A stretch of DNA of 64,000 bases from an uncultured Candidatus Saccharibacteria bacterium (GTDB lineage: Bacteria; Patescibacteriota; Minisyncoccia; Phycocordibacterales; DATDWN01), in assembly GCA_964597675.1 (NCBI GenBank), contig CAZQYV010000001.1:81644-145643 (forward strand). The letters are read 5' to 3'. The notes beneath the pieces were generated by a model that worked only from the letters and a program-made list of their open reading frames with translations, was not told where the DNA came from and ran no database searches. Made by a program: the position numbers and the translations under genes. How positions within the stretch are numbered: position 1 is the stretch's first letter; each line of letters starts with the position of its first letter. Below, in pieces: positions 7,702 through 31,311 of this stretch.

Positions 7702-7734
7702 GGGTACCCTATGTAGTTATCAATATAGCAAAAG

Positions 7735-7998
7735 TTACGATTCTTTATATGCCCTCTTACTTTCTGCGAATATCTCTTGTATTCTCTCTTTCGGTATTCT
7801 AGTTGACATAGTGAGAGATTCACTGAGTATTTTTTCTGAAACGGGCATTGTCCCTACCAATTCTGATAAGATACACCCGATGACCGCCAACGTTTGTTCC
7901 AGTTTTTCAGCTCTTTCACCCACCATATTATCCATTGTGCTTTTGATCGGCTCAAGTTCACTGTTGCACATATGTGCCTCCGGGGAATACAGTAGCAC
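7735..7998 (-). CDS. hypothetical protein, possibly co-transcribed downstream of the YbjQ-like gene
   Basis: ORF starting 6 nt after the ybjQ-like stop; no known motifs. Confidence 0.25.
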   Translation of the reverse strand: MLLYSPEAHMCNSELEPIKSTMDNMVGERAEKLEQTLAVIGCILSELVGTMPVSEKILSESLTMSTRIPKERIQEIFAESKRAYKES

Positions 7999-8003
7999 AG
8001 TTG

Positions 8004-8369
8004 CTATTTTTTCTCTACTACGACCGCAGTTCCATATGCCAGAACTTCTGTTACTCCTTGCATTATTTCGGTGGCATCATATCGGGCACCAACCACTGCA
8101 TTTGCGCCCATCTCTTTGGCATGTTGGAGCATGAGATCAAAAGCATCAGATCTTGTTTCTTCACATAGGTCTGTAAAGAGACTTATATTTCCACCGATTA
8201 ATGTTTGTAGTCCTGCTCCAATTGACCCAATGACCGATCGTGATCGAACAATAATACCTTTTGCAACACCTTTGTTTTCGACAATGGTATGCCCTGGTAG
8301 TTCCAGCCCAGTTGTAACCATATTATGACTGACACGGTTTGTTTGTTCCATAGTATTTGTTTTATCCAT
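8004..8369 (-). CDS. YbjQ/UPF0145 (DUF74) family protein
   Basis: The sequence matches the YbjQ family pattern over its whole length; about 120 aa. Confidence 0.7.
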
Positions 8370-8449
8370 TAAAATTATTTTATGCTTTACTCCAATTTAT
8401 ATTTGTAAAAAAACCTCTTATCCTTCGTTTCATTCAGGATCTAGCAGTT

Positions 8450-9043
8450 CTATTTACTGGCTTCCATAAAATTAAGTTCTGTTTTCTTCCAGTTCAAGTT
8501 GGTAAAGTAGTCTTCGACATATTGTTTCTTTCCACTTGGTTGATAGTCAGCTACGAACGAATGTTCCCACATATCCAAAGCAATGATCGGAGTGCAGTTT
8601 TGTAACTGACCCAGATGTTGTTCATCAATCCATGCGTTTAGTAGTTGCCCGTCCATATTATCCCAATATAATATTGCCCAGCCAATACCACGAGTCATAG
8701 ATATTGATTTGAATCGTGTTAGCCACGCATCAAATGATCCAAAATCCTTTTCAATCTGTGAGTATAGTTTACTGTCAGTTTTTGGGGCAGTCGCCTCGTC
8801 TGCGAGGGAGTCAAAATAGATTTCGTGGTTTCTCATACCATTGTATTCAAATCCGAAACGTCTCTGTACTTCACCCAATGCGTAAGCGTTTTTTTCGCTG
8901 TCACCAATCATTTCCTTTATTTTTTGCAAGATAAGGTTACTGTGTTTAACATAACCAGCATATAACTTTAGGTGTTCCTCAATAGTTTTTAGAGAAATTC
9001 CAACTAATGGGCCGATATTAAATTTTTTTTCTTGGAATTGCAT
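8450..9043 (-). CDS. sodA: Fe/Mn superoxide dismutase
   Basis: SOD motifs DMWEH..Y and the metal-ligand His pattern; 197 aa. Confidence 0.85.
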   Translation of the reverse strand: MQFQEKKFNIGPLVGISLKTIEEHLKLYAGYVKHSNLILQKIKEMIGDSEKNAYALGEVQRRFGFEYNGMRNHEIYFDSLADEATAPKTDSKLYSQIEKDFGSFDAWLTRFKSISMTRGIGWAILYWDNMDGQLLNAWIDEQHLGQLQNCTPIIALDMWEHSFVADYQPSGKKQYVEDYFTNLNWKKTELNFMEASK

Positions 9044-9114
9044 ATATATAGTAAGTAAATTATATAAAATGATAACTTTCCAGATCGTATATATTCTGGC
9101 CGGTATATTATACT

Positions 9115-9990
9115 ATGTATATCATGAAAGCCCTACAGTTCATCAGGCATCACTTTAGGTGGATTCTTCTCCTAATTCTTATGTCTTTTTCTGCGACACT
9201 TTGGTATGTTGCTATTCGTGAAAACAGAGATGGGATTTTGACTATATCTTTTCTCAATATTGGCCAAGGTGACGCCATTTTTATTGAGTCTCCGACTGGG
9301 ATGCAAGTTGTTATTGATGGTGGTCCAAACAAGGCAATTATGAAAGAGATTACTTCTATTATGCCGTGGTACGACCGTCATATAGATATGATTATGGTTA
9401 CAAACCCTGACAAGGATCATTACGAGGGTTTTATTCCTCTTTTTGGCAGATATACAATCGGTGTTGAGATTGAACCTGGGACAGTATCACAGACAGAAAT
9501 GTTTCGCACATTAAAAAATATTATACAGACCAAGAAAGTTGCTAGTATAGTCGCACGTCGAGGCCAGATTATTGATATTGGTGGGGGAGCATATATACAG
9601 ATTTTATTTCCAGATCGTGATGTATCGGGACTTTCGACTAACAACGGTTCGATTGTTGCAAAATTGGTATACGGTGAGACGAGTGTCTTGTTGACTGGGG
9701 ACTCGCCAGTTGCCATAGAGGAATATCTAATTTCACAGGACAAAACAATACTCGACAGTGATATATTAAAGGTTGGGCATCATGGGTCACGTACATCCAC
9801 AAGTGATGCTTATGTTCAAGCAATCTCTCCGGCATATGCAGTGATTTCTGCTGGAAAAGATAATTCATACGGACACCCACACAAAGAGGTTTTGGATATT
9901 TTGGCAAAAGAAAAGGTGCCGGTTCTCGGCACCTATGATCTGGGGAGGATTACTTTTGTTTCTGATGGGAAACGTCTTGTTAGAAAGTAA
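9115..9990 (+). CDS. stand-alone ComEC C-terminal-like metallo-beta-lactamase fold protein with N-terminal TM anchor
   Basis: MBL-fold motifs HHGSRTS and SYGHPH typical of the ComEC nuclease domain; single N-terminal TM. Confidence 0.65.
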   Translation: MYIMKALQFIRHHFRWILLLILMSFSATLWYVAIRENRDGILTISFLNIGQGDAIFIESPTGMQVVIDGGPNKAIMKEITSIMPWYDRHIDMIMVTNPDKDHYEGFIPLFGRYTIGVEIEPGTVSQTEMFRTLKNIIQTKKVASIVARRGQIIDIGGGAYIQILFPDRDVSGLSTNNGSIVAKLVYGETSVLLTGDSPVAIEEYLISQDKTILDSDILKVGHHGSRTSTSDAYVQAISPAYAVISAGKDNSYGHPHKEVLDILAKEKVPVLGTYDLGRITFVSDGKRLVRK

Positions 9991-10190
9991 TATCTAGATT
10001 TTAACTGGTTCCTGTGTGTTTTTACCTCGGCACAAATCATCAATTTGTTTTTTAATGCGTGATGCATCATTGTTTGCACCGATATTTTCGGCACGTTCGA
10101 GTCGGCTTCGAAGTAACCAGAGATGTTTTTCCAACTCCCTTTCTTCCTGACACGAATCACACTCACATCTTATAGGATGTTTTTCCATAA

Positions 10191-10227
10191 AAAAGATACG
10201 CTCCAATTGGAGCGTATCTTTTTTGAC
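10191..10227. terminator. perfect palindromic hairpin, bidirectional terminator between the 9115 gene and rpmB
   Basis: aaaaaagatacgctcc-aatt-ggagcgtatctttttt, a 16 bp stem flanked by A/T runs. Confidence 0.6.
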
Positions 10228-10245
10228 TCTGTTAGTCAATATGGA

Positions 10246-10493
10246 TTAGATAAGGCCTGCTTTTTTGAGTGTTGCGTAGGCGCCATTTTTCTGTATAGTC
10301 TTGATCGCTTTCGTAGAGAGTGTCAGCGTAATAGATGTGTTTAATTCAGGTACAAAAATCTTCTTTTTTTGAAGATTTGCATATTTTCGAACAGCGCCAG
10401 TTGGGTTGAATTGGGTTGCACGAGTACGGTTGGAGTATCCTCCTCCCATCTGTGAACTCTTATTCGTGATTGGACATGCTTTTGCCATAGTGT
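10246..10493 (-). CDS. rpmB: 50S ribosomal protein L28
   Basis: The internal MAKACPITNK start matches the L28 N-terminus; the longer ORF upstream is discounted. Confidence 0.7.
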
Positions 10494-10733
10494 TAGATAT
10501 GGTAGCATATGTAATGTAAAACGCAAGTTCGTGATCTACGGAGTTAAAGACGTTAACAACATTTTCGATTTTAAAAACACATTCGCAGTTTTTTGTCTGA
10601 AATGTTGGCATTTTTCTCTAGCCGAGAGCGCTTGCCCCGTAGGGGACGCGAAGCGGTTAGCGGAAGGCAGGGAAAAATGTTTTACATTTCACAAAAAGCG
10701 AGGACGTGTTTTTAAAATTAAAAATGTGACGCT

Positions 10734-11348
10734 ATGACCGTCGACCTTATTTTTTCCATCATTATCCTCATATTTTCAGTCATTATCCATGAGGTCTCTC
10801 ATGGTTATGCTGCATACCTGCAAGGGGATAATACAGCTAAATATGCAGGGAGATTGAATCTTAACCCCTTCAATCACCTCGAATGGTTTGGCTCATTTTT
10901 CTTGCCTATGATGTCATATTTTCTCGGGGGTTTTATTATTGGTTGGGCAAAGCCCGTTCCGTTCAATCCATACAATCTCCGTAATCAGCGATGGGGTGAA
11001 GCTCTTGTGGCAGTGGCAGGCCCTCTGTCAAATATATGTATAGCACTGATTTTTGGGCTTCTCATCCGGTCAGGCGTGGCATTTTCCTTTGGTCTGGCCT
11101 TTGTACAAATATCAGTGATGATAGTTACTATCAATTTAGTTTTAGCGACATTTAATCTCATACCCGTACCACCACTCGATGGTTCAAAGATTCTTTTCTC
11201 GTTTCTCCCATATTCTTTGCAATATATCCGTAATTTCCTCGAGCAGAACGGTACATTTATATTACTTTTCTTTGTCTTTTTCCTCTGGCAATTTATGATG
11301 CCTGTTATTTCATTGGAATTTACTCTTTTGACAGGACTAGTTCTATAA
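10734..11348 (+). CDS. site-2 protease family (M50) zinc metalloprotease, membrane embedded
   Basis: HEVSHG HExxH motif inside a TM helix, multi-pass membrane protein. Confidence 0.7.
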   Translation: MTVDLIFSIIILIFSVIIHEVSHGYAAYLQGDNTAKYAGRLNLNPFNHLEWFGSFFLPMMSYFLGGFIIGWAKPVPFNPYNLRNQRWGEALVAVAGPLSNICIALIFGLLIRSGVAFSFGLAFVQISVMIVTINLVLATFNLIPVPPLDGSKILFSFLPYSLQYIRNFLEQNGTFILLFFVFFLWQFMMPVISLEFTLLTGLVL

Positions 11349-11576
11349 TTTTGTGGAAACATAACCTCGTTGAGGCGTGGCATTTTTGGAGACTTCGGAG
11401 CTCGACGGAGCGAGATTTAGTGGTCCGGCTAGCAAGCTGAACCACGTGCTCTAAAAATACCACGGCGAAAAAGAGGTTTGATCTGAAACAAATTAGTTGA
11501 AGATGGGGAGGAGAAAGAGAGTATTACTTGCTAAACAATTTGCAATTTTCAGGGAAATATATTACTATGTCAGCCA

Positions 11577-11993
11577 ATGTCTACGATAAATCAATTAGTA
11601 AAGAAAAGCCGACATACGACCAAGAGAAAACCACGTTCTGTGGCTTTGACTCGTGGCTTTAATAACCTCAAAAACCATCCTGTATACTATTCGTCTCCAT
11701 TCAAGCGAGGCGTGTGTACAAAGGTGACTACAAAGACACCAAAGAAACCAAACTCCGCTATCCGAAAGATTGCCCGTGTTCGACTAACAAATGGCTACGA
11801 GGTAACCGCATACATCCCAGGAATGGGTCACAACTTGCAAGAGCACTCAGTGGTTATGCTTCGTGGTGGTAAAGTACGAGATGTTGGTCTACGATATTCA
11901 GTTGTCCGAGGAGTTTTGGATGCAACTGGAGTAGATAAACGAATGAAAGGCCGATCACGATATGGTGCGAAACGACCAAAGAAAGGTAAATAA
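11577..11993 (+). CDS. rpsL: 30S ribosomal protein S12
   Basis: TINQLVKK start, PNSAIRK, and the conserved GH..QEHS and LRGG..DLPGVRY-like blocks. Confidence 0.95.
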
Positions 11994-12004
11994 TTCTAAT
12001 TATT

Positions 12005-12475
12005 ATGCGAAGAAAAGTCACAAACAGAAATATAGTAGGTCCAGATCACGTCTATAATTCAGCAAAAATAGGCAAGTTTATTAACTACGTTATGATTCGT
12101 GGGCAGAAAGCAACTGCACAAGGTATTGTATATGAAGCCCTCGAAAAGATAAAAGATAAGGCAAAAGTAGAGGATCCTATGGAAGTTTTGGATACTGCTC
12201 TTAAAAATACAGGACCTTTGACAGAGGTTCGATCACGACGAGTCGGCGGTGCAAACTATCAGATTCCCCGAGAAGTTCGTCCAGAGCGACGCTCATATCT
12301 CTCTATGAAATGGATTATTGATGCTGCTCGAGCACGAAAGGGTATTCCTATGGCTGAAAAATTGGCAGAAGAAATTATTTTGGCTTCAAAAAATGAAGGT
12401 GAGGCAGTAAAGAAGCGAGAAAACACTCACAAAATGGCAGAAGCAAACAAGGCGTTTGCCCACTTTGCATGGTAA
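12005..12475 (+). CDS. rpsG: 30S ribosomal protein S7
   Basis: S7 family sequence; position immediately after rpsL. Confidence 0.95.
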   Translation: MRRKVTNRNIVGPDHVYNSAKIGKFINYVMIRGQKATAQGIVYEALEKIKDKAKVEDPMEVLDTALKNTGPLTEVRSRRVGGANYQIPREVRPERRSYLSMKWIIDAARARKGIPMAEKLAEEIILASKNEGEAVKKRENTHKMAEANKAFAHFAW

Positions 12476-12648
12476 AAATAAACTAAAATTTTTAATACAA
12501 AAACACCACACCCTCTGTGTGGTGTTTTTGTTATCCCCACTTTTACTCCTCCTTCCTCCCACACCAATCATTTTCTCTGTTACAATATATCTAACACAAC
12601 AGGTGTTATTGTTTTTCATTATCATATTATTCGCATTTAACTATCACC

Positions 12649-15600
12649 ATGTCTCTATTCAATCGTATTCGTACCCTATTATTAATCTGTGCTCTCATCT
12701 TTGCAGGGAGTGTTGCACTGCACACCATACACGCACAGTCATCTGGCTACACACCAGTGTCAGTCAACTCTCCCACCAACACCTCACTCAAAGTGACAGC
12801 AACACCTCTAGAGTTAAACAACACCACAAACATGTGGTCCTACAAGATAGACTGGAAGAGAACACGTAATGCACAAGGTTCTATATCTATTGCAGAAGAG
12901 TCATCTCCTACAACTAAAGTCCTCTCACTCTCTCCTGCATCACAAGAGGGAAGTCAGACTGTCACACTCAAACCCTCTACTACATACAGAGTGAAGTTCT
13001 ACAGTACAACGGGATATGGTGGAACACTCATCTTGAGCAAAAAGATGACAACTCTCGCTACATCTGATGAGGATCCTGACCTAGAGGACGATGTGGTGAA
13101 TACAGATACTTCTATCACAGGTCTTCAAACGCAGATTGCATCTCTCCTTGCACAGATCAATGAACTCCGAGCACGATTAGCGGGGGGGACACCTGTGACT
13201 ACTAGCACCAGTTCAAGTCCTGCTGTTGTGACTACAACAGTATCTACAGGCACTGGGAGTTATGATCCTGCGGTGGATAACAGATCAACCAACACATTTT
13301 ACATTGCACCTAAGTCACAGGTAAAAACAGGTAGCAAACCTGCCTATTTCTTTGTGCGTATCGGTAAATATGGAAGTCAGAGCAGTGCTATATCAGAATT
13401 TAAAAATGTACCAAAAGGTATGAATGTCACTTTCTATAGGTTAGATAAAGATAGGATTGACCCTTCATGGTATTCAGGAGAGAAATTACCGGTTGATCAA
13501 TATTCATATACAGGAACTAGTTTTCCAATATTTGCGTATCTTAAATCAGTCCAACCATACCCATTGGCAAAATGGCTTGGGACGTATCAGCGTTGGTTAA
13601 AACCTGATGAAAATATGGCCAGAAGCCAATTTGGCGGACCTAATATTATTAACGACGGCACAGCTATTCTTAGGTCTGGAGAAATGGGGCTGTTAAAAGT
13701 TGATACAGATACAGATTTTACGGCTGGACCTGGGACATATACTATTACAGCAGTCGAGAGTACTAATCAAGGTTCAGATATTGCGGGACAATATAATTCA
13801 TCGGCTACGAAAAAAGAAGTAACATTTAGTGTTGTAATCGGTGATCAGGTGGCAATGTGTCTCAGTGATTTAAAGACGTGGCCAAGTCCAACAGCAAAAA
13901 ATTCTAAAACACTTCCTGATGCATTTAAACTATCTGGCGATCCTGGAAGATTTAATGATGCCTGTGATCCAAGTATTGGCGCAAATGCTTCAGGATTTCC
14001 AAATTTTACTGACAGAAAGAAGCCGTTATTGCAGGATTGTGTTACTAAAGCACAAAAACAAGCAGATGCTCTCGGTGTTCCCATGTCTTGTTCTATCATT
14101 ACAGAGGCAAGTGGTGGTTATTTCCGAGCTGGCTGTATAATCACTGGTACTGGCTATGAATTTCAAGCAGCACAATTGGTTGGAACAGGACAAGTTGGTA
14201 CAAATCAGCAGTATTCTCAGGGTAGTTGGAGAGATGTAGAGAGGACAATTCTTCAAAGACAAGCAGAAAAAGTGGCTGATCGTGGATATGTATATTATGA
14301 TAACGACTCAAATGTTTGGCGAGCAATGAATCAGACTGTAGCAGACGCACCAGCATCTTGTGATAAGTTGCTCGATGTTGATGTTAAAAGCGTTAATAAA
14401 GAATGGAATATTTCCATTCATGCTAAGTCACTGACAGAAGGTTCTGTTATTCCAATCGAAATTGTTGCACACCCATCGGTTAAATCAGTTAGTCTATATC
14501 TGCTTAAAGATTATACGAATGGTTCGAACGCAAGAGAGTGGTGGAATGATGAGTATGCCAAACTTTCATCAGCAACTTCTTGGAGTTCATGGATTGGTGA
14601 GAAAAATGCAGCTCAATCACCACAAAGAAATTTAATTGGATATCCAGAATATCATCCACAGGTTGCGTTGACTATGCAGAGAGTCAACTTGGTAAATGGT
14701 AAGGGTACAATACAGTGGACTGTTCCTTCTAAGCTTGAGCCATATCAAGAAATGGGCTGGAACCAAGGAGGACAAGGCGGTTTGCAGCCAGCCGTTCAAT
14801 ATAGTATTAGAGCGATAGCAGACAATAGTATATGGTCTGATAGTCCTAGTTTTACTATATTATCTAATACTCAATCATGTAACTTACTCGAGGGTACAGC
14901 ATGTGATTCATCAAAGGTTACTGAGTCTGTGCAGTCCGGTTCATCTGGAGGTTATGCATTATGGGTAAATGGCCGCGATTTGTATAGGTCTTTCGGTGTA
15001 ATGGGTCAAGGAGTTGCTCCTCTAGATGTTCGAATTACAACTGCTGATGCAACATATAAAACTGGAGATCCTCATCCAAGTAGTTCTGTTCCACTTCCTG
15101 TTCCAGTAACGGCAGGCAAACCAATTCAGATTTCAGGATACATGTTTAATAATTCGACCAAAAAAGTTGATATTGATCTGTTAAATATTGGCACCCCTCT
15201 GTGTCAAAGCAGTGTCAACCAAGCGTATCAAGTGTTCCATGCTTGTGAGCAAGAATATTATTCAAAACCAATAGTGACATGGTCAATTGCTCGGGATATA
15301 CCATCACGCATTATAACTGATTCATTAGGATATAATACATGGTTCTTTAATCACATCTTTACAGTACCATCTGATGCGATTGTTCCCGGTAAATACGTCA
15401 TTCGCATAACCGATCCTGATTTCTTGTATAGTTATGCTGGACAGGAGAGAGGAACAGCTATATTTGGATTTCAGGGTGGTGTAGCATTTAGTCCATCATT
15501 TGAGGTGATCGGTTCATCACAGCCTGCTACAGGACAGACGCCAACTCCGACAACACCTTCAACACCAACTAGCGCAACACCAGTTTCTAATGCTTCAGGT

Positions 15601-15882
15601 GTGGACGGATTCTCTTCAGTATGTGAATCTACATCAACCTTCTGGTTTAGAAACAACGCATCGGCATATAATCTATATCGAAACACAACAAATAATGTTT
15701 CGACTGCACAGAAAATCTTGAGTAACATATCTTATATGCCTGGGAGTAGTACGGGCGGGTATGTTGATAAACCGCAGAGAGGAACATACTTCTATTGGGT
15801 AGAAAATGTTGGAAGTACTGTAAAAGCCCCTTCTGCAAAGAATGCAATAGATGGTGTACCGGTCATGTCATGTCTCTTCTAA
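12649..15882 (+). CDS. large secreted protein, paralog A (1077 aa): signal peptide, shared Fn3-like N-terminal module, coiled coil, Thr/Ser linker, divergent large C-terminal domains ending in a second Fn3-like domain
   Basis: Signal peptide MSLFNRIRTLLLICALIFAGSVALHTIHAQ; about 110 aa module shared with the two downstream genes; Y-x-Y-x-V beta-sandwich signatures. Confidence 0.7.
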   Translation: MSLFNRIRTLLLICALIFAGSVALHTIHAQSSGYTPVSVNSPTNTSLKVTATPLELNNTTNMWSYKIDWKRTRNAQGSISIAEESSPTTKVLSLSPASQEGSQTVTLKPSTTYRVKFYSTTGYGGTLILSKKMTTLATSDEDPDLEDDVVNTDTSITGLQTQIASLLAQINELRARLAGGTPVTTSTSSSPAVVTTTVSTGTGSYDPAVDNRSTNTFYIAPKSQVKTGSKPAYFFVRIGKYGSQSSAISEFKNVPKGMNVTFYRLDKDRIDPSWYSGEKLPVDQYSYTGTSFPIFAYLKSVQPYPLAKWLGTYQRWLKPDENMARSQFGGPNIINDGTAILRSGEMGLLKVDTDTDFTAGPGTYTITAVESTNQGSDIAGQYNSSATKKEVTFSVVIGDQVAMCLSDLKTWPSPTAKNSKTLPDAFKLSGDPGRFNDACDPSIGANASGFPNFTDRKKPLLQDCVTKAQKQADALGVPMSCSIITEASGGYFRAGCIITGTGYEFQAAQLVGTGQVGTNQQYSQGSWRDVERTILQRQAEKVADRGYVYYDNDSNVWRAMNQTVADAPASCDKLLDVDVKSVNKEWNISIHAKSLTEGSVIPIEIVAHPSVKSVSLYLLKDYTNGSNAREWWNDEYAKLSSATSWSSWIGEKNAAQSPQRNLIGYPEYHPQVALTMQRVNLVNGKGTIQWTVPSKLEPYQEMGWNQGGQGGLQPAVQYSIRAIADNSIWSDSPSFTILSNTQSCNLLEGTACDSSKVTESVQSGSSGGYALWVNGRDLYRSFGVMGQGVAPLDVRITTADATYKTGDPHPSSSVPLPVPVTAGKPIQISGYMFNNSTKKVDIDLLNIGTPLCQSSVNQAYQVFHACEQEYYSKPIVTWSIARDIPSRIITDSLGYNTWFFNHIFTVPSDAIVPGKYVIRITDPDFLYSYAGQERGTAIFGFQGGVAFSPSFEVIGSSQPATGQTPTPTTPSTPTSATPVSNASGVDGFSSVCESTSTFWFRNNASAYNLYRNTTNNVSTAQKILSNISYMPGSSTGGYVDKPQRGTYFYWVENVGSTVKAPSAKNAIDGVPVMSCLF

Positions 15883-15941
15883 AGTTAAATTTCAAAAAAT
15901 CTCCCTTTGGGGAGATTTTTGTATATATTAAAAAATATGTC

Positions 15942-16330
15942 TGATATAATACACCAATGAACATATCAAAATATCTTAGTACCCCTTTACTCATCCTCAC
16001 CATCCTTCTTACTACACTCTGGAGTGTACACACCCTACACGCACAGTCATCTGGCTACACACCAGTGTCAGTCAACTCTCCCACCAACACCTCACTCAAA
16101 GTGACAGCAACACCTCTAGAGTTAAACAACACCACAAACATGTGGTCCTACAAGATAGACTGGAAGAGAACACGTAATGCACAAGGTTCTATATCTATTG
16201 CAGAAGAGTCATCTCCTACAACCAAAGTCCTCTCACTCTCTCCTGCATCACAAGAGGGTACACAGACTGTCACACTGAAACCTTCTACTACATACCGAGT
16301 GAAGTTTTATAGTACAACGGGGTATGGAGG
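15942..16330 (+). repeat. about 390 bp segment (promoter, signal peptide, N-terminal module) nearly identical to 18770..19158; a 220 bp core is also shared with 12731..12950
   Basis: Direct nucleotide comparison shows only a couple of mismatches over hundreds of bases. Confidence 0.8.
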
Positions 16331-18722
16331 AACAGTTATATTAAGCAAGAAACTTACGACATTGTCTTTTGACGATGAACAGCCAGATATTGATGCAACC
16401 TATGTGCAGATAAAACCAGCAAATATATTGCAGACACAGATAAGTGAATTACTTGCGATTATTGCACGATTACGTGCACAACTTGATGCAATATCAATTT
16501 CAACCACAACCCCTCGCATACAACCGCCACAGCCAGCCCTGTGTACTATGGAAGTACGTCTCTGTCCGGACGGTATAACTTATGTTGGACGCACAGGTCC
16601 ACAGTGTGAGTCTGCACCATGTCCTGTAAGTCCAAGTGTTCCATCAAGTCCTGTAAATGTACAAAATACGGTAGTAGTATCAAATAAAAGTGATGTCACT
16701 GTAACCAATTACCCGATGCAAATAGGTAGACCATTTAAGCAGGGTGAGATTGTGGGATATCCTAGTGTGTCGATAAATGGGTCGACTGTACTTACTCAGG
16801 CAGATGTAAAAAATCGATGGTCAGACGGTAGTGTAAAATTTGCAATACTTTCTTTTGTTCTACCGAATTTATCAGCAAATTCTACATTAACATTAGCATT
16901 TTCTAATCAATCGTCTGGTAACAATACTGCGTTGACGAAAAGCCAAATGCTTGGAACCAATTACAATTTTGATGCTCAAATAAAATTGACTAGTGGAGGT
17001 AATACAAAGATGGTATCTGCACGAGACATGCTATCCAATGGTGATTATGTGGTATGGACGAGTGGACCCGTGGCCACAACGATTATTCTTGCCGATCATT
17101 CTGCTGATAGAAAATATGATATGGGATTTGATTCTCACAAATCATTTAGACCAATTTTCGAAGCAACATTTTGGCCAGCAACAAATCAAGTAAGAGTAAG
17201 ATATATTGGTGAAAATAGTAATACAAAATCACTCCAAGATATACAATATGACCTTGCTTTGACACTTGGTTCAGTAAATCCAAAGTCTGTGTATAGTCGA
17301 GCAGGGTTGGCCCATCCTTTGCTCACTCGTTGGACAAAAGTTTTTTGGCTAAATGGTGCACCAAATCAGAAAATCAATGTCGATAATAATTTAGCATATC
17401 TCAGTCAGACAACATATTTTCCAGTGTTTGATATGACAGTTAGTGTTCCGGATGAAGTTGTAGCCTCTGCATATAGTTCTTGGCAAAATAATCCACACGA
17501 CCTATACGATTCTGGTGGTTGGACAAAATATATGCCAACAACTGGCGGAAGGTCAGATATTTCACCATTTACCAATTGGACAATGCGTTGGTTATATACA
17601 GGTGATTGGCGTACACGAGAGATTGCTCTGGGAATGGGTGATTTGGCTGGAGCATGGCGCTTGCATGCTCGTGAAGGAGACTCAACAAAAAAAATAGATA
17701 AAGCACAGACTCAATCTGGACTTACTTTGCCGATATCGGTGTATGCATATCCAAATCTATGGCTGCCCGACAACAACGGTTCCTATGGACAATTAGCAAT
17801 TCCGAACGCTCGGGTGGTTGATAACGGCTGGGTGGCTGATAATGCTCACCAACCGGATCCATTTTATGCCGAGTATGTGCTGACTGGTGATCATTGGTAT
17901 CTAGAAGAAGCGCAGATGTGGGCTAGTATGAGTGCCTTGGCAAACTGTCCCGGAAGTGCACAGTGGTGTCGCGGTTCGGGAATGGCGGGACTACAAGATC
18001 AGGTACGTGGTGATGCATGGGCATTCCGTAATCGTATGAATGCTGCTTTCATCACTCCAGATGATATGCAGACACTCAAAAACTTTTATACTAATATGGT
18101 CAATGATGTTTTGGCTTTTTGGGAAGGGAAAGCTGGAATTACTGGCACGGGGTTTCAAAATACTACTGAATGGAAATGGGCAAACACAAATACGTACAAG
18201 GTTGCACGAACAAACCCGCTCCATTTTTGGTCAATTGATGGTGCTCCACCATACTATTATGCTCCATGGCAGCAGTATTATCTTTTGACAGTGCTTGGAA
18301 TAGCAAAAGAAAGGGGATATGCGACCCGTCCGTTATTTGATTTTCTCAGTACTATGCTAACAAAACAAATATCAGCTGAGCGGTATAATCCATTCAATTT
18401 GGCATCATATTCTATTCAGGTTTCGGATGCAAAAGGAAATTGGTACCCTACATGGGGAGATGTACAGGCGGCAAACGTTGACCGTGACTATATGAAGGCA
18501 ACTGGTGATTTTTTAGCAACTAATAATGGTGCATATTATCCAATACTTGCAACAGCCGCTTCTTCATTTATGACATCTACTTCAGATGGTATGTCTACAT
18601 GGAATTTCTTGAAGACTAATGTGAAAGATAGTTCATTACGTAAATTACTAACCGTACCGGGTTGGTATACGAGTTACTATGATGGTACTGGGGAACTTGG
18701 ATGGAATATTATTCCACGTTGA
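15957..18722 (+). CDS. large secreted protein, paralog B (921 aa): same N-terminal module, a 4-Cys CTME[VA]RLCPDGITYVGRTGPQC module, then a divergent C-terminal region of unknown (possibly carbohydrate-active) function
   Basis: N-terminal 130 aa nearly identical to paralogs A and C; TATAAT 6 nt upstream of the ATG; C-terminal Trp-rich region. Confidence 0.7.
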   Translation: MNISKYLSTPLLILTILLTTLWSVHTLHAQSSGYTPVSVNSPTNTSLKVTATPLELNNTTNMWSYKIDWKRTRNAQGSISIAEESSPTTKVLSLSPASQEGTQTVTLKPSTTYRVKFYSTTGYGGTVILSKKLTTLSFDDEQPDIDATYVQIKPANILQTQISELLAIIARLRAQLDAISISTTTPRIQPPQPALCTMEVRLCPDGITYVGRTGPQCESAPCPVSPSVPSSPVNVQNTVVVSNKSDVTVTNYPMQIGRPFKQGEIVGYPSVSINGSTVLTQADVKNRWSDGSVKFAILSFVLPNLSANSTLTLAFSNQSSGNNTALTKSQMLGTNYNFDAQIKLTSGGNTKMVSARDMLSNGDYVVWTSGPVATTIILADHSADRKYDMGFDSHKSFRPIFEATFWPATNQVRVRYIGENSNTKSLQDIQYDLALTLGSVNPKSVYSRAGLAHPLLTRWTKVFWLNGAPNQKINVDNNLAYLSQTTYFPVFDMTVSVPDEVVASAYSSWQNNPHDLYDSGGWTKYMPTTGGRSDISPFTNWTMRWLYTGDWRTREIALGMGDLAGAWRLHAREGDSTKKIDKAQTQSGLTLPISVYAYPNLWLPDNNGSYGQLAIPNARVVDNGWVADNAHQPDPFYAEYVLTGDHWYLEEAQMWASMSALANCPGSAQWCRGSGMAGLQDQVRGDAWAFRNRMNAAFITPDDMQTLKNFYTNMVNDVLAFWEGKAGITGTGFQNTTEWKWANTNTYKVARTNPLHFWSIDGAPPYYYAPWQQYYLLTVLGIAKERGYATRPLFDFLSTMLTKQISAERYNPFNLASYSIQVSDAKGNWYPTWGDVQAANVDRDYMKATGDFLATNNGAYYPILATAASSFMTSTSDGMSTWNFLKTNVKDSSLRKLLTVPGWYTSYYDGTGELGWNIIPR

Positions 18723-18784
18723 TAGTACTAAAATTTTTGTTTAGATGGATATTGTAGGATGTGTTTATGTGTTATAATACACCA

Positions 18785-20173
18785 ATGAACATATCAAAAT
18801 ATCTTAGTACCCCTTTACTCATCCTCACCATCCTTCTTACTACACTCTGGAGTGTACACACCCTACACGCACAGTCATCTGGCTACACACCAGTGTCAGT
18901 CAACTCTCCCACCAACACCTCACTCAAAGTGACAGCAACACCTCTAGAGTTAAACAACACCACAAACATGTGGTCCTACAAGATAGACTGGAAGAGAACA
19001 CGTAATGCACAAGGTTCTATATCTATTGCAGAAGAGTCATCTCCTACAACCAAAGTCCTCTCACTCTCTCCTGCATCACAAGAGGGTACACAGACAGTCA
19101 CACTGAAACCTTCTACTACATACAGAGTGAAGTTTTATAGTACACCAAACTACACAGGCACTGCTATTTTGAGTAGGAGAATGACAACACTTTCAATATA
19201 TGATGAAGAGCCAGATGTTGAAAATATCATACCCCCTGTTTCCATGGATTCAAGTATAACTAATCTTCAGTCACGTATCTCTGAATTGTTACGTATGATA
19301 GAACAATTACGAGGACAAATTGGTCGCAGTGTATCTTCGTCTTCTACCGCAACAAGTACAGCCACTACAACAAATCCTCTAATTTCACTTCCGCAACAAC
19401 CTGTAGCATGCACCATGGAGGCACGCCTGTGCCCAGATGGTATTACATATGTAGGACGAACCGGCCCGCAGTGTGAATTTGGAGCATGTCCTGTAAAAAA
19501 ATGTGATACTGGATTACTCTACATGCCATCATGTTCTGGCGTACCTGTTCAAAATCCAAACACATGTGAAATAACGTGTCAGTCTAGTGCACAGTCAGCA
19601 CGAGTAACAATTACAACAAACTATAGCGAGCCACTTCTTTTGGGTTCATATAGTAATTTGTCATTTCAGGTATCATTGCCACAAAATGTAAATCCAAATC
19701 CTGACTATACATTCAAGTTAGTCGGTAGTATTCCTGGTATGATTTTTGAAAATATGTGGTGTGACCAAGTGGGTTATGGAGGAATCTGTCCTAAAATGGT
19801 AAGTGTATCAAGTGTCATGTATCTTGACGGCAGACCAACTCAAGTGGGAATATATCCCATTACTCTTGTTGCCACAGATCAATATGGTAATACAGGATCA
19901 AAAACTATAAACATAGAAGTGGTTAGTTTGAAACCGTTACCACTTATTACTCAATGTCTCTATGCTGCACCACCAGATGGTTGTAGTTATATTCCCGGAC
20001 CGAATTATAATCCTCAGACAACATGCGGTATGATTCTTTCCTGTAATGCAGAGACAGCATGTCAAAATGTTGAAGTGGGTGTAATGCGAACTTGCTTGAC
20101 AGGATATGTTTCAAAATTAAATCCAAAAACGTGTATATATGAGTGTGCACCTGTTGGTAGCAGTTCAGAATAG
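18785..20173 (+). CDS. secreted protein, paralog C (463 aa): same N-terminal module and Cys module, with a Cys-rich C-terminal region
   Basis: Start at MNISKYL, identical to paralog B including the upstream tataatacacca; the ORF track starts 24 nt earlier at 18761. Confidence 0.7.
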   Translation: MNISKYLSTPLLILTILLTTLWSVHTLHAQSSGYTPVSVNSPTNTSLKVTATPLELNNTTNMWSYKIDWKRTRNAQGSISIAEESSPTTKVLSLSPASQEGTQTVTLKPSTTYRVKFYSTPNYTGTAILSRRMTTLSIYDEEPDVENIIPPVSMDSSITNLQSRISELLRMIEQLRGQIGRSVSSSSTATSTATTTNPLISLPQQPVACTMEARLCPDGITYVGRTGPQCEFGACPVKKCDTGLLYMPSCSGVPVQNPNTCEITCQSSAQSARVTITTNYSEPLLLGSYSNLSFQVSLPQNVNPNPDYTFKLVGSIPGMIFENMWCDQVGYGGICPKMVSVSSVMYLDGRPTQVGIYPITLVATDQYGNTGSKTINIEVVSLKPLPLITQCLYAAPPDGCSYIPGPNYNPQTTCGMILSCNAETACQNVEVGVMRTCLTGYVSKLNPKTCIYECAPVGSSSE

Positions 20174-20272
20174 GCACGTTCATAATTGCGTTATCCTTAT
20201 TTTTGGTATATAGTTTGAGATGTTAAAAATCGAGTGTGTTCGACTTGTTTTAATTATTAATTTATCATTTTT

Positions 20273-22414
20273 ATGAATCGAGATTATCCACTAGAGCATG
20301 TAAGAAACTTTGGTATTATTGCCCACATAGACGCAGGTAAGACAACGACATCTGAAAGAGTGTTGTTTTATACAGGTATGACTCACAAAATCGGTGAGGT
20401 ACATGAGGGCGAGACTGTAACTGACTGGATGGAACAGGAGCGAGAGCGAGGTATCACTATTACCGCAGCCGCAATTACATGTTTCTGGCACAAGACAGAT
20501 ACTGAAAAGAAACCAGAGACTATGTTTCGATTCAATATTATTGATACTCCTGGACACATTGACTTTACCGCAGAGGTAAAGCGATCACTTCGTGTGCTTG
20601 ACGGTGCGGTAGTGGTTTTCGACGGTGTGGCTGGTGTGGAGCCTCAGTCAGAAACAAACTGGCGATACGCCGATGATGGCAATGTCCCACGAATTTGTTT
20701 CATCAACAAACTCGATCGTATGGGAGCATCATTTGAGCGATCATACGCATCTATTCTAGATAGACTAAATAAAAATGCTGTTCGTCTCCAGATTCCTATT
20801 GGACTTGAAGAACATTTTGCTGGTGTTATTGATCTCCTTAAAATGAAGGCATTTTACTTTGAAGGCAACATGGGCATGAATATTCGTGAGGAAGAAATTC
20901 CAGCAGAATATCTTGATGAGGCGAACAAATACCGTGCAGAATTGATTGAAAAAATTGTTTCAGAGGATGACGAGGCCATGAGTGCATATCTCGATGGTAA
21001 AGAGCCTTCATATGATGAATTAAAGAAAATACTTCGAAAAGCAACACTTGCTGTAAAACTTATTCCAGTTTTTGCAGGGTCTGCACTCAAAAATAAGGGC
21101 GTACAACTAGTGCTCGATGGTGTGGTGGACTATCTCCCATCTCCACTTGATATTCCTCCTGTTGTTGGTACAGATCCAAAGACAGGGGAGCCAGTTACTC
21201 GACATGCGTCAGATACAGAACCATTTTCGGCCCTTGCTTTCAAACTTCAAAATGACCCCTTTGTTGGGCAACTAACATTCTTCCGTGTCTATTCTGGAAC
21301 AATCGAGGCTGGAACATATGTATACAACTCAACTACAGGAGAAAAAGAGCGACTGGGACGTATTGTGCGCCTTCAGGCGGACAAACGAGAAGAGGTAAAG
21401 AAAGTATTTGCAGGTGAAATTGCAGCGGCCGTAGGACTGAAGTCAGCAAAAACATCACACACACTCTGTGATGAAACAAATTCTATTATTCTCGACCCAA
21501 TTAAATTTGTTGATCCAGTGGTTTCACTTCGTATTGAGCCAAAAACAAAAGCAGATCAGGAAAAAATGGGTATGGCACTTAAAAAGTTATCTGACGAAGA
21601 TCCAACATTTATTATTTCATCAAACTCTGATACAGGGGAGACAATCATTTCTGGTATGGGTGAATTGCATCTCGAGATTATGGTTGATCGTATGAAGCGA
21701 GAGTTTTCTGTGGAAGTTAATGTTGGTAAGCCACAGGTGGCATACCGAGAGACAATTTTGGGTACTGCGGAGGCAGAACACAAATATATCAAGCAAACTG
21801 GTGGTAAGGGTCAGTACGGTCACGTAAAGCTTACTCTAAAACCAATGGAGAAGATTGAGGAGGGTGCAAAAATTCCAAAAAATACACACCGATACGAACA
21901 TTTTGAATTTATTGACTCAATCAAAGGAGGTGTTATTCCACAAGAGTTTATTCCTGCAGTTGAAAAAGGTGTACAAGAGGCAATGGAGCGCGGTATTGTT
22001 GCAGGGTTCAAGATGGTTAATGTCTCATGTGAATTGACATTCGGTTCATACCATGATGTGGACTCATCTGAAATTGCATACAAAATCGCCGCTTCACAGG
22101 CCTTTCAAGATGCTGCAAAGCGTGCACGAGCAGTTATTCTCGAGCCGATTATGAAAGTAGAGGCAATTATGCCCGAGCAATTCATGGGAGACGTCACCGG
22201 CTCACTTTCAGGTAAACGAGGACAAATTGAAGGTATGGACGAGCGGGGAATGCTCCGAGTGATCCACGCCAAAGTACCGCTAGCAGAAATGTTTGGATAC
22301 ACAACAGATATTCGATCTATGACTCAAGGACGCGGATCAGCAATGATGGAATTTGACCACTATGAGGTAGTTCCTCCAAATGTGGAAAAACAAATCATTG
22401 AAAGTAGAAAATAA
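20273..22414 (+). CDS. fusA: elongation factor G
   Basis: GTPase motifs [14 protein letters not shown] and NKLD; EF-G domain order; 713 aa. Confidence 0.95.
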
Positions 22415-22453: not shown

Positions 22454-25402
22454 GTGATAGATGAGATGGTATATAATAAATACATGAGCAGACTCTCTAA
22501 CATTACGGGTGGATTATACCACCCAAGCGCTGAACCAACCGGTTTGGAAAATTCTCAGAAATCTCCGGTTAATCAAGAAGATTTTGATATTCTAAATAAA
22601 CAAAAGGATCCTTCTCTAGTCAATAGTGATACGAACACAGTATTCACGTTTAAACCACTGACAGAAATTTTGCCGGAGGATGAAAAAAATAATGAGTCTG
22701 GTGATAAAGCAAAAAATTTGCATGTTGTCGTTGACAATACTGTACAAACAGAAAAGGAAACACCAAAAGACTTAGAAGAAAAAACTATTGAAAAACGACC
22801 TCTACCATCTTCGGAGTTATTGTCTTGTTTAGATGAAATTGAGAGTGGAGGAAAAACAATTCGCTCATTGAGACATCAGGCAGAAAAAGGAATACCTATT
22901 AATATCCCTTCTCTTCTTGATGCAATTCGTATTTCAAACACGACGGGTCTTATATCAAAAGGAGAGAGAACTAGAATCGAACGTATATTGATTAGGGAGG
23001 GCATCATAAACCTTAATCAAGAAAAGATCAGCGAGCCAACTAAAATTTTTCATACTGGTCAAAAAGTTCGTCTTGCCCTTAGTGAGGGATCAATTCATGC
23101 AGGCCCCGTTTATACTATACGGAAAGTAGTTGGGGATGCTGCTTTTTTAGAAGGACGTACACAGCCAGTTCCAATCGAAAGCCTAAAAGAGACTGATGAG
23201 TTGGCGGAAGATATAAAAGACCTTGAATCAGAAAAAAGACAATTTCTCTTTGGAAATAAAGATGCAACGAAAAAGGATATTGAGTGGTACGATACCGAAA
23301 TAAATAAAAAAAGGAATCAATTGCAGGAAAGGGATCACCCTGGTATCTCGGCTACCACCGAAACTCCTACTAGCAGTATGGACACGGCAGATGTTCAACC
23401 AGTAGTCGATTTAGCGAGTACTATGTATGGTCCTCGTGCGACAGATGAGGAATTAAATGAGTCAATTGAGATTTCAGTTGAGAACTCGCTTCGAGAGGCA
23501 CGTTCGGCGTATGCAACATTATTGACTGAGCACAAAAATAAGATACGAGAGAGCAAATCACGATTCCAGAAAATTATGGATGATCTTGGTGTTGATATCT
23601 CTCGAAAAATGCCAGATATTCCAATGTCTGCTGAATTACTGAATGCGGAAGAGGAATATATATTAGCTAAGAAAAACAGAAACTTTGCATTGTTTGGTAA
23701 AGGAGAGGTAAAAACAAGAAAAAATCTAGATGGAAATGAGGAAAGTTTCATTTTTAATCCAGAGATTATTAATGCATCAGAACGAGAATATGATATTTTG
23801 AAAAAACAGATTATTGATTCATTACCTCAAAAAGAAAAAAATCTTGCTCAGAGAGCTTTGAAAAAATGGACAAATCTTCCTTTACCGGTTCGCGTCGGTA
23901 TTACATCAACTCTTTTTGGTGTTGGTCTTGGGGTTGGTGCCGGTATGGGTGCTTTTGGTGTTGCTGCATATTCAGGGTATCGTGCGATAAAAGCCGTTGC
24001 TGGCGCAGAGGTTTCTACTGGTGTTGGTTTTACACTCGGAAAGTATTATGACAAAGTAAATAAAAAAACACACGAAGGTGTGTTGGGTGAATATGGTACA
24101 GCAATCGATGGGGGTAACTTTGAAGAAAAAGAACGTCAATTAATGCGATCATTTGAAAAAGAGGAAGAGACAAAAAAGAAGCAAGCACTTAAAATAGGTG
24201 CCGCTATGGCCGTGTCCGGTGGAGTTTCCACAGCATTGCTTGGTGGTGTGTTTAAGCCATCAGCATCCAGTGTAGTAGAGTCAGGCAGTCCAAAGGTCAG
24301 TGGCGCCATTGATAATTCAAAAGGTGCTGTCAGAGGTGTTGACGGTATTCCAAAACCCAATATTCCAACAGAAGCACCATCTTTATCAAAAATAGCAGAA
24401 GTGAAAATAAAGCCAGCTGGGGTTGAATTGTCATCCCGAGGATTTATACAAACATTTGATGATTTAAAAAAGAAACTTATTGAAGAGTATGGTGGAGCAG
24501 ATAAAGTACCAGAAAAAATAAAAGTAAATATTTTGAATAAACCATCTACTGAACTCGCACAAAAATTTGGTTTTTATGATGCCCAAAAGGGTTTGTCAGG
24601 TATGGGTTTGAAAGGTGAACATCTTTCTATTGATTCCAGTGGTGATTTGGTATATGAACATTTAGACAAGTCAAAAGATGTTATGCTCGAGGGTCATACC
24701 GGCAATATTCATACGTTTGATGGAACCATGGCTCACACAGGTCCTGCAGTTGATACTATCTCAACTCCAAAACCATTTGTTGCGCCAGATTCACTTTCTC
24801 GTCCACATGTTGATGTACCACAGGTTGCAGAAGGCGATTTTACATCAATTATAGATACACAACCAGATATGCCACATTTGACACCAGATATCATGGGACA
24901 ACAGATTGGCCAAACTGTTGAATACGCAAATATGAAATTCAATATCGCTAATATTGCAGATCAAGGTAAGGTCCTGCTGACCCCAGAGGGGACACAGATC
25001 GGGCACGAGGGAATGGTTGGGGGAATGAAGCGCTGGATACTTGAACCAAAATTTCAGGATGGAGATAATTTTAAGGGTATTCGTCAGGCATTTAATACTA
25101 TTACACATGGTCAGATTGAAGCAGTGGACATAAAAGGGGTGACATCCAAGGTTATTGATTTCGAAAAAGGGTCACAGATAGAAATAGTAAAAGGCCTAAA
25201 GGTAGATAATCCAAATGCATTGACTATTTTACTGAATGGTAAGGAAGTTGCAGAAGGCACAGTGACAGCAAATGGTCCAAGCCTTCATTTACTCAAAGAC
25301 ATACCAAAAACAGGTCCGTTTTTTGCTGATAATGTCTATGAACGGGCTTTTAAATCAAAAGAACTTAAAAAGGTCCTCAATGAGTTTGTTATTACTACAT
25401 AA
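22454..25402 (+). CDS. large Lys/Glu-rich hypothetical protein with a Gly-rich TM segment, inserted between fusA and tuf
   Basis: 982 aa; TM at LPLPVRVGITSTLFGVGLGVGAGMGAFGVAAY; coiled-coil-like charged N-terminal half; no family recognised. Confidence 0.55.
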   Translation: MIDEMVYNKYMSRLSNITGGLYHPSAEPTGLENSQKSPVNQEDFDILNKQKDPSLVNSDTNTVFTFKPLTEILPEDEKNNESGDKAKNLHVVVDNTVQTEKETPKDLEEKTIEKRPLPSSELLSCLDEIESGGKTIRSLRHQAEKGIPINIPSLLDAIRISNTTGLISKGERTRIERILIREGIINLNQEKISEPTKIFHTGQKVRLALSEGSIHAGPVYTIRKVVGDAAFLEGRTQPVPIESLKETDELAEDIKDLESEKRQFLFGNKDATKKDIEWYDTEINKKRNQLQERDHPGISATTETPTSSMDTADVQPVVDLASTMYGPRATDEELNESIEISVENSLREARSAYATLLTEHKNKIRESKSRFQKIMDDLGVDISRKMPDIPMSAELLNAEEEYILAKKNRNFALFGKGEVKTRKNLDGNEESFIFNPEIINASEREYDILKKQIIDSLPQKEKNLAQRALKKWTNLPLPVRVGITSTLFGVGLGVGAGMGAFGVAAYSGYRAIKAVAGAEVSTGVGFTLGKYYDKVNKKTHEGVLGEYGTAIDGGNFEEKERQLMRSFEKEEETKKKQALKIGAAMAVSGGVSTALLGGVFKPSASSVVESGSPKVSGAIDNSKGAVRGVDGIPKPNIPTEAPSLSKIAEVKIKPAGVELSSRGFIQTFDDLKKKLIEEYGGADKVPEKIKVNILNKPSTELAQKFGFYDAQKGLSGMGLKGEHLSIDSSGDLVYEHLDKSKDVMLEGHTGNIHTFDGTMAHTGPAVDTISTPKPFVAPDSLSRPHVDVPQVAEGDFTSIIDTQPDMPHLTPDIMGQQIGQTVEYANMKFNIANIADQGKVLLTPEGTQIGHEGMVGGMKRWILEPKFQDGDNFKGIRQAFNTITHGQIEAVDIKGVTSKVIDFEKGSQIEIVKGLKVDNPNALTILLNGKEVAEGTVTANGPSLHLLKDIPKTGPFFADNVYERAFKSKELKKVLNEFVITT

Positions 25403-29220: not shown

Positions 29221-29314
29221 AAATTGAAAAATCAAAATGGAAAATTACAAGACAAAGTCAGAAAATATTAATTAAAATTTTTACTTTTGATTTTTCAATT
29301 TTACATTTAATACC
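29221..29314. repeat. about 90 nt palindromic intergenic repeat element with a perfect 17 bp terminal inverted repeat (aaattgaaaaatcaaaa / ttttgatttttcaattt), MITE-like
   Basis: Related copies at 35276-35377 and 44616-44706. Confidence 0.65.
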
Positions 29315-31213: not shown

Positions 31214-31220
31214 AATCAAA

Positions 31221-31250
31221 AAAACCGCTCTACAAGGCGGTTTTTTGGTG
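31221..31250 (+). terminator. rho-independent terminator after rplB
   Basis: aaaaaaccgctctacaaggcggtttttt. Confidence 0.65.
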
Positions 31251-31276
31251 TTCGTATAATATATTATGGCATGTAC

Positions 31277-31305
31277 TTGACAAATAATCAATAATAGTAT
31301 ATACT
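31277..31305 (+). promoter_or_regulatory. sigma70-like promoter (TTGACA, 17 nt spacer, TATACT)
   Basis: ttgacaaataatcaataatagtatatact. Confidence 0.55.
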
Positions 31306-31311
31306 TATATA

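Follow-up and report, generated by a model that had tools for sequence, protein, structure and literature searches.

Probable concerted evolution of a shared N-terminal module among three tandem secreted proteins in the str operon of a Patescibacteria genome

Introduction

Why should the str operon of a Patescibacteria genome be interrupted by three genes for secreted proteins that begin with nearly the same DNA and end in entirely different protein regions? The question is raised by 64,000 nucleotides (nt) of contig CAZQYV010000001.1 (assembly GCA_964597675.1, an uncultured Candidatus Saccharibacteria bacterium; positions 81,644 to 145,643, forward strand), a stretch that we refer to throughout, at its full length, as the window. 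An ORF listing places three same-strand open reading frames (ORFs), here called genes A, B and C, between rpsG and fusA, and an earlier note on this DNA had described them as an array of secreted paralogs that implies ongoing gene conversion or a modular system. The answer developed below is that they are members of a modular family of secreted or surface proteins whose genes evolve in concert.

Results

Near-identical DNA at the 5' ends of the three genes

The genes, and the tracts in which their DNA agrees, lie at the following window positions.

12649..15882, plus strand: gene A, an ORF of 1077 amino acids (aa)
12728..12950, plus strand: core of A (+80 to +302), 223 nt with one mismatch to B and C, read as a conversion tract
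15945..16267, plus strand: tract of B, 323 nt, an exact match to C, taking in part of a TATAAT-like box, the ATG, the signal peptide and about two-thirds of the N-terminal module (N-module)
15957..18722, plus strand: gene B, an ORF of 921 aa
18773..19095, plus strand: tract of C, 323 nt, an exact match to B by pairwise DNA comparison
18785..20173, plus strand: gene C, an ORF of 462 aa counted from the ATG that matches the start of B

The 323-nt run is the longest match between B and C; it begins 12 nt 5' of the ATG, within TATAATACACCA-ATG, and is followed by only two mismatches up to +360 and then by an abrupt drop to about 55% identity. The B/C alignment has 31 mismatches in 452 nt; with an even spread, the probability of meeting none in the first 323 nt would be about 1e-17. 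The longest exact run between A and B or C is 187 nt, and the signal-peptide DNA of A is unlike that of the other two. Tract ends thus vary by pair, starting at +80 where A is involved and at -12 for B and C. The measured 223 and 323 nt agree with what had been claimed from the letters alone, a near-identical core of about 220 bp in all three genes and a longer B/C identity that includes the promoter region.

Codon analysis showed that over the first 74 codons from the cleavage motif HAQ the paralogs have 0-2 synonymous and 0 non-synonymous differences, and that codons 90-110, still within the conserved N-module, have 8-10 synonymous differences. Because synonymous sites agree in the 5' codons, the identity is one of DNA and not a by-product of protein conservation. 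Discrete tracts, abrupt boundaries and near-zero synonymous divergence are what concerted evolution predicts.

Comparison with other genomes

Orthologues in sister strains are 3.7-7% diverged inside the same tracts that are identical among the paralogs of the window. Gene C of contig L008 differs from the C of the window at 12 of 323 nt in the tract (31 of 1077 in the rest of the gene), the A gene of contig L009 differs at 8 of 124 nt inside the tract, and contig L001 differs from the window core at 16 of 223 nt; within the window, B and C differ at 0 of 323 nt and A differs from either at 1 of 223.

The same pattern emerged from an identity matrix built on 14 N-module copies, found with a module hidden Markov model in five genomes plus L001. 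Amino acid identity of the module is 93-96% among A, B and C, 89-90% among g2, g4 and a contig-12 copy of metagenome-assembled genome (MAG) CAZFQP, and 96% between g2 and g3 of a Candidatus Doudnabacteria contig, but only 35-62% between modules that sit on the same C-terminal type in different genomes. Paralogs are therefore closer to one another within a genome than to their orthologues in related genomes. The C-terminal domains keep their identity across genomes: that of B is 65% identical to g1 of L002, and A-type proteins are 58% identical to a protein of L003 and can also be aligned with L002 g2 and with L006. Orthologous C-terminal domains combined with modules that cluster by genome mean that the fusions are old and the identity of the modules is young.

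Two other genomes repeat the array and its homogenised 5' ends. The 949-kb Candidatus Doudnabacteria contig (L004) has three tandem module genes; g2 and g3 agree at 97% of 645 nt of promoter and 5' coding DNA, 252 nt of them in one exact run, and g1 is 73% identical to both. MAG CAZFQP01 (L002) has four, and its g2 and g4 are 87% identical over 567 nt that include upstream DNA. Signal peptides are mosaic between strains; the module gene of L001 begins like B and continues like the A of L009. Ongoing gene conversion, as the earlier note had proposed, is supported by the differences between sister strains, by the clustering of modules by genome and by this recurrence.

The paralogs of the window have one further segment in common, a helix of about 25 aa (LQxQIxxLLxxIxxLRxQL; window 13114-13185, 16419-16496 and 19256-19330), which the A-type and B-type orthologues of L003 and L002 lack. 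This suggests that the helix may have spread among the paralogs within the lineage of the window through an older, longer exchange.

Distribution of the N-module

A word-indexed search of 5.8 billion proteins, run with single sequences and with a profile, returned as relatives of the module only P0001, P0126 and P0127; a fourth protein, P0002, matches the four-cysteine (4-Cys) motif described below and nothing else. This search missed diverged copies of the module, which were found through homologues of the C-terminal part of B and by scanning the 185,579 species genomes of GTDB, where five module loci turned up in four Patescibacteria MAGs. The N-module is very rare and restricted to a few Patescibacteria lineages. 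The earlier note had allowed that its reading would fail if the module were a widespread domain with ordinary divergence; divergence between genomes was indeed found, but the module is rare and homogenised genome by genome, and the reading stands. A literature search found no description of the N-module family or of the domain at the C-terminus of B.

Independent contigs covering the array

Neither the array nor its place in the str operon is an artefact of one assembly, because independent contigs reproduce the rpsG-A, B-C-fusA and A-B intergenic parts. L008 and L009 come from one JGI metagenome, unrelated to that of the window, and both are colinear with it. L009 covers window 6607-12851 (rpsL, rpsG, the genes before them and the first part of A) at 91.8% identity, and L008 covers 18317-20515 (the end of B, all of C and the start of fusA) at 96.9%. 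L001, an ENA contig, spans the end of A together with the A-B intergenic DNA and its hairpin. Assembly error, which the earlier note had named as a possible refutation, is unlikely given the outer junctions in L008 and L009; the copies themselves may be exactly identical or about 98-100% identical.

L001 departs from the window after the A-B intergenic region, where a module is followed by a C-type body and the 2.8-kb body of B is missing. The arrangement is the expected product of unequal recombination between the B and C modules, and as such is suggestive only. As proof of a deletion of B it was rejected, as an assembler run at k=119 could join the sequence in this way across any repeat that exceeds 119 nt.

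The C-type gene of L001 has an in-frame TGA at codon 169 (L001 1241-1243), where the window has TTA (Leu); the gene could be a pseudogene, or the codon could reflect a sequencing error or recoding.

Setting in the str operon

The features that flank and separate the three genes are listed here.

11577-11993: rpsL, upstream flank, by NCBIfam equivalog model
12005..12475, plus strand: rpsG (ribosomal protein S7), upstream flank, by TIGR01029 (rpsG_bact, E 1.5e-56)
12508..12525, plus strand: terminator-like hairpin and T-run 3' of rpsG, a pattern match from a consensus scan
15895..15920, plus strand: terminator-like hairpin with an 11-bp stem between A and B, by consensus scan, identical in sister strain L001
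20273..22414, plus strand: fusA (EF-G), downstream flank, by TIGR00484 (1032 bits)

Further downstream, NCBIfam equivalog models identify tuf and rpsJ. With flanks named by these models and all ORFs intact, the earlier description of three secreted paralogs that interrupt the str operon is secure. Each gene is complete, with its own start codon, signal peptide and full N-module, and the gaps between A and B (74 nt), B and C (62 nt) and C and fusA (99 nt) are free of ORFs. The ORF lister gave C an alternative start, a GTG at 18761, which would make the protein 470 aa long. A TGnTATAAT box, read by eye, lies 6 nt 5' of the ATG in both B and C, and from these boxes we read B and C as genes that would be transcribed independently from near-leaderless promoters.

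Two other origins for the array were considered and set aside. A compositional island was ruled out, as GC content is 0.39-0.43 both within the array and outside it, and a phage origin was rejected, as no relative of the N-module was found among the viral contigs scanned.

The str operon has a second interruption, an ORF of 982 aa (window 22454-25402) between fusA and tuf, which has a hydrophobic segment in mid-protein and no family match. L003 has a homologue of 1438 aa (35% identical; L003 292-4608) in the corresponding position; an A-type module gene comes next, and after it a tuf 93% identical to that of the window. In the window, as in its sister strains, rpsG and fusA flank the array, and other arrays lie elsewhere in their genomes: that of L002 adjoins a gene for a LysM protein, and that of L004 lies between a PilB-like ATPase gene and polA (neighbours identified by eye). 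Because the L002 and L004 arrays sit elsewhere, insertion in the str/tuf region appears to be tolerated or favoured in one sub-lineage and is not a property of the family.

Domain content of the three proteins

Sec-type signal peptides of A, B and C (motif ...LHA/QSS) were read by eye, and no C-terminal membrane anchor or sorting motif was seen on reading the three sequences. None of the three proteins matched a family above threshold in Pfam, NCBIfam or PADLOC, and phmmer searches of the PDB with the three proteins and with a profile of four A-type proteins gave nothing meaningful. The coiled-coil-like helices, which are short and amphipathic, and the Ser/Thr linkers that the earlier note had reported are present.

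The N-module (about 107 aa; aa 30-137 in A, B and C) matches the Pfam model fn3 (PF00041) over nearly its whole length with 17.3 bits (E 0.0055), below the 25-bit cut-off, and fn3_6 with 16.1 bits (cut-off 26.4); this weak fn3 signal is its only Pfam match, with SLH, CWB2 and dockerin profiles among those tried. An AlphaFold model from a shallow alignment is an eight-stranded beta-sandwich with a predicted local distance difference test score (pLDDT) of 73.7. All the top PDB matches that Foldseek found for this model are Fn3 domains (probability 1.0, E 1e-3 to 3e-2, template modelling (TM) scores 0.45-0.6). With both lines of evidence in agreement, "Fn3-like", the label first given to the module from its letters, is a reasonable name for the predicted fold. 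The module directly follows the signal peptide in 13 of 14 family members, the sole member with a C-terminal module being L002 g3. It is combined with roughly seven to nine different C-terminal regions across the genomes, as expected from the earlier claim that one N-module serves many C-terminal domains.

Protein A consists of a signal peptide (aa 1-29), the N-module, a helix (aa 156-179), a Ser/Thr linker (aa 180-203), a region of about 780 aa and, from aa ~988, an Fn3-like tail that also occurs in L002 g3. Apart from this tail, the C-terminal region of about 880 aa has no relatives outside the family in Pfam, NCBIfam or the PDB.

In protein B, the signal peptide and N-module are followed by a helix (aa 155-180), a 4-Cys module (aa 196-223) and a domain resembling those of carbohydrate-active enzymes.

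16542..16625, plus strand: 4-Cys module of B (CTMEVRLCPDGITYVGRTGPQCESAPCP), from sequence reading
16662..18719, plus strand: C-terminal domain of B, 686 aa, beta-sandwich and (alpha/alpha)6 barrel, a fold like that of polysaccharide lyase family 26 (PL26)
19409-19492, plus strand: 4-Cys module of C, about 77% identical in nucleotides to the B copy

A model of the C-terminal domain of B, built from a 90-sequence alignment, has a pLDDT of 94.3 and shows a beta-sandwich with an (alpha/alpha)6 barrel after it. PL26 has the same multi-domain fold, and the nearest solved structure is a PL26 lyase. On this model, the domain is of polysaccharide lyase or glycosidase type at the level of fold. The likeness is distant in sequence: in structural alignment the PL26 exo-rhamnogalacturonan lyase 5xq3 is 9% identical, with a global TM score of about 0.3, phmmer of B against PDB chains (5xq3 included) found no match, and Pfam and PDB phmmer searches gave no sequence-family match to PL26, GH88, GH105, PL35 or heparinase II/III-like proteins. 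The B-type family has 3,699 cluster representatives (50% identity) at E<=1e-3 and 794 at E<=1e-30. Elsewhere its members are fused to PG_binding_1, fn3, BACON and type IX secretion system (T9SS) sorting domains, and these partners indicate that the domain is probably used outside the cell, on glycans. Residues invariant in the family (H396, Y405, R449, R458, E338 and D315 in domain numbering) are candidates only for a catalytic role. With a lyase/glycosidase-type fold predicted at high confidence, this large family without annotation deserves study for its own sake.

Protein C has a signal peptide, the N-module, a helix (aa 158-182), a Ser/Thr linker, a 4-Cys module (aa 209-236), an immunoglobulin (Ig) domain resembling He_PIG (aa ~274-380) and a Cys-rich tail; Cys-rich segments also occur in L007. 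He_PIG (PF05345) scores 16.5 bits in C itself, below the 24-bit cut-off, and 29.5 bits in L004 g3 and 24.6 bits in L007, both above threshold, in segments homologous to C. We take C to carry an Ig-like domain of He_PIG type at the level of fold.

The 4-Cys module, which the earlier note had recognised in both B and C, has no Pfam model. Its pattern, C-T-M-E-x-[RK]-x-C-P-D-G-x-x-Y-V-G-R-T-G-P-x-C-E-x-x-x-C-P, occurs in unrelated Patescibacteria proteins, namely P0002, L004 g2 and L007 (twice).

Other members of the module family carry a transglutaminase-like core, TIG domains and a Kre9/KNH-like Ig domain, and a region with a zincin-like HExxH motif (HEYAH), identified by eye and not from a library match.

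Other features of the window and of L004

Several features apart from the array were noted in passing. An AT-rich repeat of ~95-115 nt, which contains a hairpin (AAAAATCAAAA...TTTTGATTTTT), occurs between genes at window 29216-29330 and 35279-35393; the copies are 85% identical and stand directly 5' of the start codons of ORFs 29315-30076 and 35378-35593 in the S10/spc region (rplD and rplX by eye). A 61-nt repeat (28112-28172 and 28451-28511, 95% identical) with a GGCGCC...GGCGCC hairpin lies between rpsJ and ORF 28606-29220 (rplC by eye). The ribosomal operon is interrupted at 31213-32408, between ORFs 30371-31213 and 32408-32803 (rplB and rpsS by eye), by a gap of about 1.2 kb with a raised GC content of 0.47, in which all ORFs are small and match no Pfam family.

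GC content in the window is highest, at 0.546, in the kilobase 42899-43834, where long ORFs overlap on both strands and there is no match to Pfam. Just upstream of the transfer-messenger RNA (tmRNA) gene, where GC content is as low as 0.31, there is a 70-nt repeat (50852-50921 and 51667-51736, 89% identical).

52191-52587, minus strand: tmRNA gene

At 59290-59886, in a locally GC-rich stretch (0.50), an ORF of 198 aa ends in a PEP-CTERM motif (PF07589, E 4e-7); sorting signals of exosortase type are not expected in a Patescibacteria genome. Upstream of the Doudnabacteria array in L004, a small gene is bracketed by the copies of an 84-nt repeat (246-329 and 923-1006, 82% identical).

Discussion

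Proposed origin of the shared modules

We consider it probable that the array represents a modular secreted protein family whose copies are kept alike by gene conversion. A, B and C would be Sec-exported members of a family confined to Patescibacteria lineages, each built from a cleavable signal peptide, an Fn3-like N-module of about 107 aa, a short helix and/or low-complexity linker, and a C-terminal working part that differs from member to member. The comparisons indicate that the paralogs repeatedly overwrite one another's 5' module by homologous recombination, through gene conversion or unequal exchange between direct repeats, and that in B and C the overwritten stretch also takes in the start region and signal peptide. 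The module thus evolves in concert within each genome and the C-terminal domains as ordinary orthologues. Tandem homology, together with selection for compatibility with a partner, could keep the module copies identical.

Several observations weigh against this picture or parts of it. Assemblers of short reads may merge nearly identical repeats and give every copy a single consensus, so that the 100% identity may be overstated; we argue that any such overstatement is minor, because a single-nucleotide polymorphism (SNP) between A and B is retained and the pattern recurs in three assemblies. The junction in L001 is equally well explained by an assembly path through the repeat, no promoter was called by a promoter scan before A, B or C, and the large C-terminal region of A has no assignable fold. 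For a docking role of the module, no partner was found, the structural model is of only moderate confidence, and Fn3 folds are functionally generic.

Possible roles of the N-module

The N-module might act as a common attachment or docking handle, much as CWB2, SLH and dockerin modules do, and keep diverse exo-enzymes and adhesins on the surface of the cell or attached to one partner, and the cell that carries the array is probably episymbiotic. We offer this role tentatively, as a possibility suggested by the domain architectures: occurrence on many partners, and once at a C-terminus, is what would be expected of a self-contained binding module. That the C-terminal parts are displayed on a common stalk, as the earlier note put it, is likewise something we infer.

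The main functional rival is that the module serves export, processing or quality control, perhaps through recognition by a dedicated machine for maturation, glycosylation or sorting, or is an intramolecular chaperone or a generic spacer. Its place next to the signal peptide in nearly all members, the Ser/Thr-rich linkers that come after it, the frequent use of Fn3 domains as spacers and the gene resembling a PilB/GspE-type ATPase (by eye) beside the L004 array would all suit such a role, but the C-terminal module of L002 g3 fits it poorly, and no conserved neighbouring machinery is common to the window, L002, L003, L004 and L007. We regard it as unlikely.

The docking role can be extended to a dedicated, cellulosome-like system, in which ultra-small episymbionts would mount changeable exo-enzymes and adhesins on one surface structure for attack on or attachment to a host. 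The cargoes would be polysaccharide-cleaving enzymes, a transglutaminase-like protease, a zincin-like protein and Ig-type adhesins, conversion would keep them compatible with their receptor, and location in the str/tuf region would couple their supply to growth. This fuller scheme is speculative and probably goes too far.

Other explanations of the identical DNA

Very recent duplication is the most serious competitor for the origin of the identity. Here a 5' segment comprising promoter, signal peptide and module would have been copied once in front of unrelated genes that already existed, and identity would simply reflect youth. A tandem arrangement favours such copying, and tracts that take in non-coding upstream bases in B/C and in L004 g2/g3 look like parts of a duplicated block, but module fusions of A, B and C type already exist in genomes whose modules are 35-62% identical, which makes the fusions old. 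A sister strain about 3% diverged already differs within the C tract, where B and C of the window match exactly, and the ends of the tracts are not alike between pairs. Duplication by itself is thus quite improbable.

Programmed variation, with identical modules as sites at which effectors are swapped onto one stalk in the manner of polymorphic-toxin cassettes, would account for the conserved N-terminal and variable C-terminal layout, for the B/C hybrid directly after A in L001, where the B body is missing, and for the mosaic signal peptides between strains. It is nevertheless very hard to credit. There are no silent or 5'-truncated cassettes, the intergenic gaps are too small for immunity genes, no recombinase or invertase was seen nearby among the window ORFs and family scans, and the C-terminal parts are enzyme- or adhesin-type regions of 230-880 aa, not small toxins, without PADLOC matches. 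Of the earlier proposal of a modular system with alternative C-terminal effectors, modularity is thus upheld by the many partners of the module, and switching is contradicted by three complete genes.

We give still less credence to an assembly artefact, in which a collapsed, duplicated or mis-joined repeat would produce the apparent identity or the insertion in the str operon. L009 does break inside the identical core, as is typical of repeat-induced contig breakage, and bubble-popping can erase small differences between copies; identical repeats of 200-650 nt break or mis-route short-read assemblies of such genomes. The outer junctions and the B-C junction are however present in the JGI contigs and the A-B intergenic region in the ENA contig, one SNP between A and B/C was kept, all ORFs are intact, and the same architecture is found in the 949-kb Doudnabacteria contig and in another MAG.

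Least credible of all is nucleotide-level selection on mRNA structure or a regulatory element in the first ~300 nt, maintaining identity without recombination: B/C identity does start just 5' of the ATG, at the translation-initiation signals, but sister-strain orthologues vary freely at synonymous sites in the same stretch, and A has the core without the 5' 80 nt.

Significance and comparison with known systems

Patescibacteria are thought to live attached to host cells, but little is known of the proteins through which contact is made; those usually proposed are large and secreted and have adhesion domains (for example PMC13059738). The N-module provides a sequence handle with which to retrieve the secreted enzyme and adhesin repertoire of a lineage and to seek a common surface partner, and the array is a clean natural example of homologous recombination and gene conversion operating in reduced Patescibacteria genomes.

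Polymorphic toxins (CDI/Rhs/MafB/LXG; Zhang et al., 2012, PMC3482391) resemble the array in their conserved N-terminal and variable C-terminal regions and in recombination between repeats. The array differs from them in that all its genes are complete and that it lacks immunity genes, orphan cassettes and C-terminal domains of toxin type. Families built on an anchoring module, such as the CWP/CWB2 proteins of Clostridioides difficile, SLH-domain proteins and the dockerin enzymes of cellulosomes, are closer in plan: like the array, they consist of many Sec-exported and often clustered paralogs that combine one module with diverse enzymes and adhesins. The module of the array is a single Fn3-like domain found in only a few Patescibacteria, and its anchoring function is putative.

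For the process, the nearest parallel is with the babA/babB/sabA hop genes of Helicobacter pylori, surface paralogs homogenised by gene conversion that also have nucleotide-identical ends, divergent functional regions and mosaic alleles, with homologous recombination as the driver. The array differs in that its genes are in direct tandem, only their 5' ends are homogenised, and the divergent parts are unrelated domains and not alleles of one adhesin. Concerted evolution of surface antigen paralogs has been treated in general (PMC10919680), and what the str operon of this genome adds is an unnamed family subject to that familiar process.

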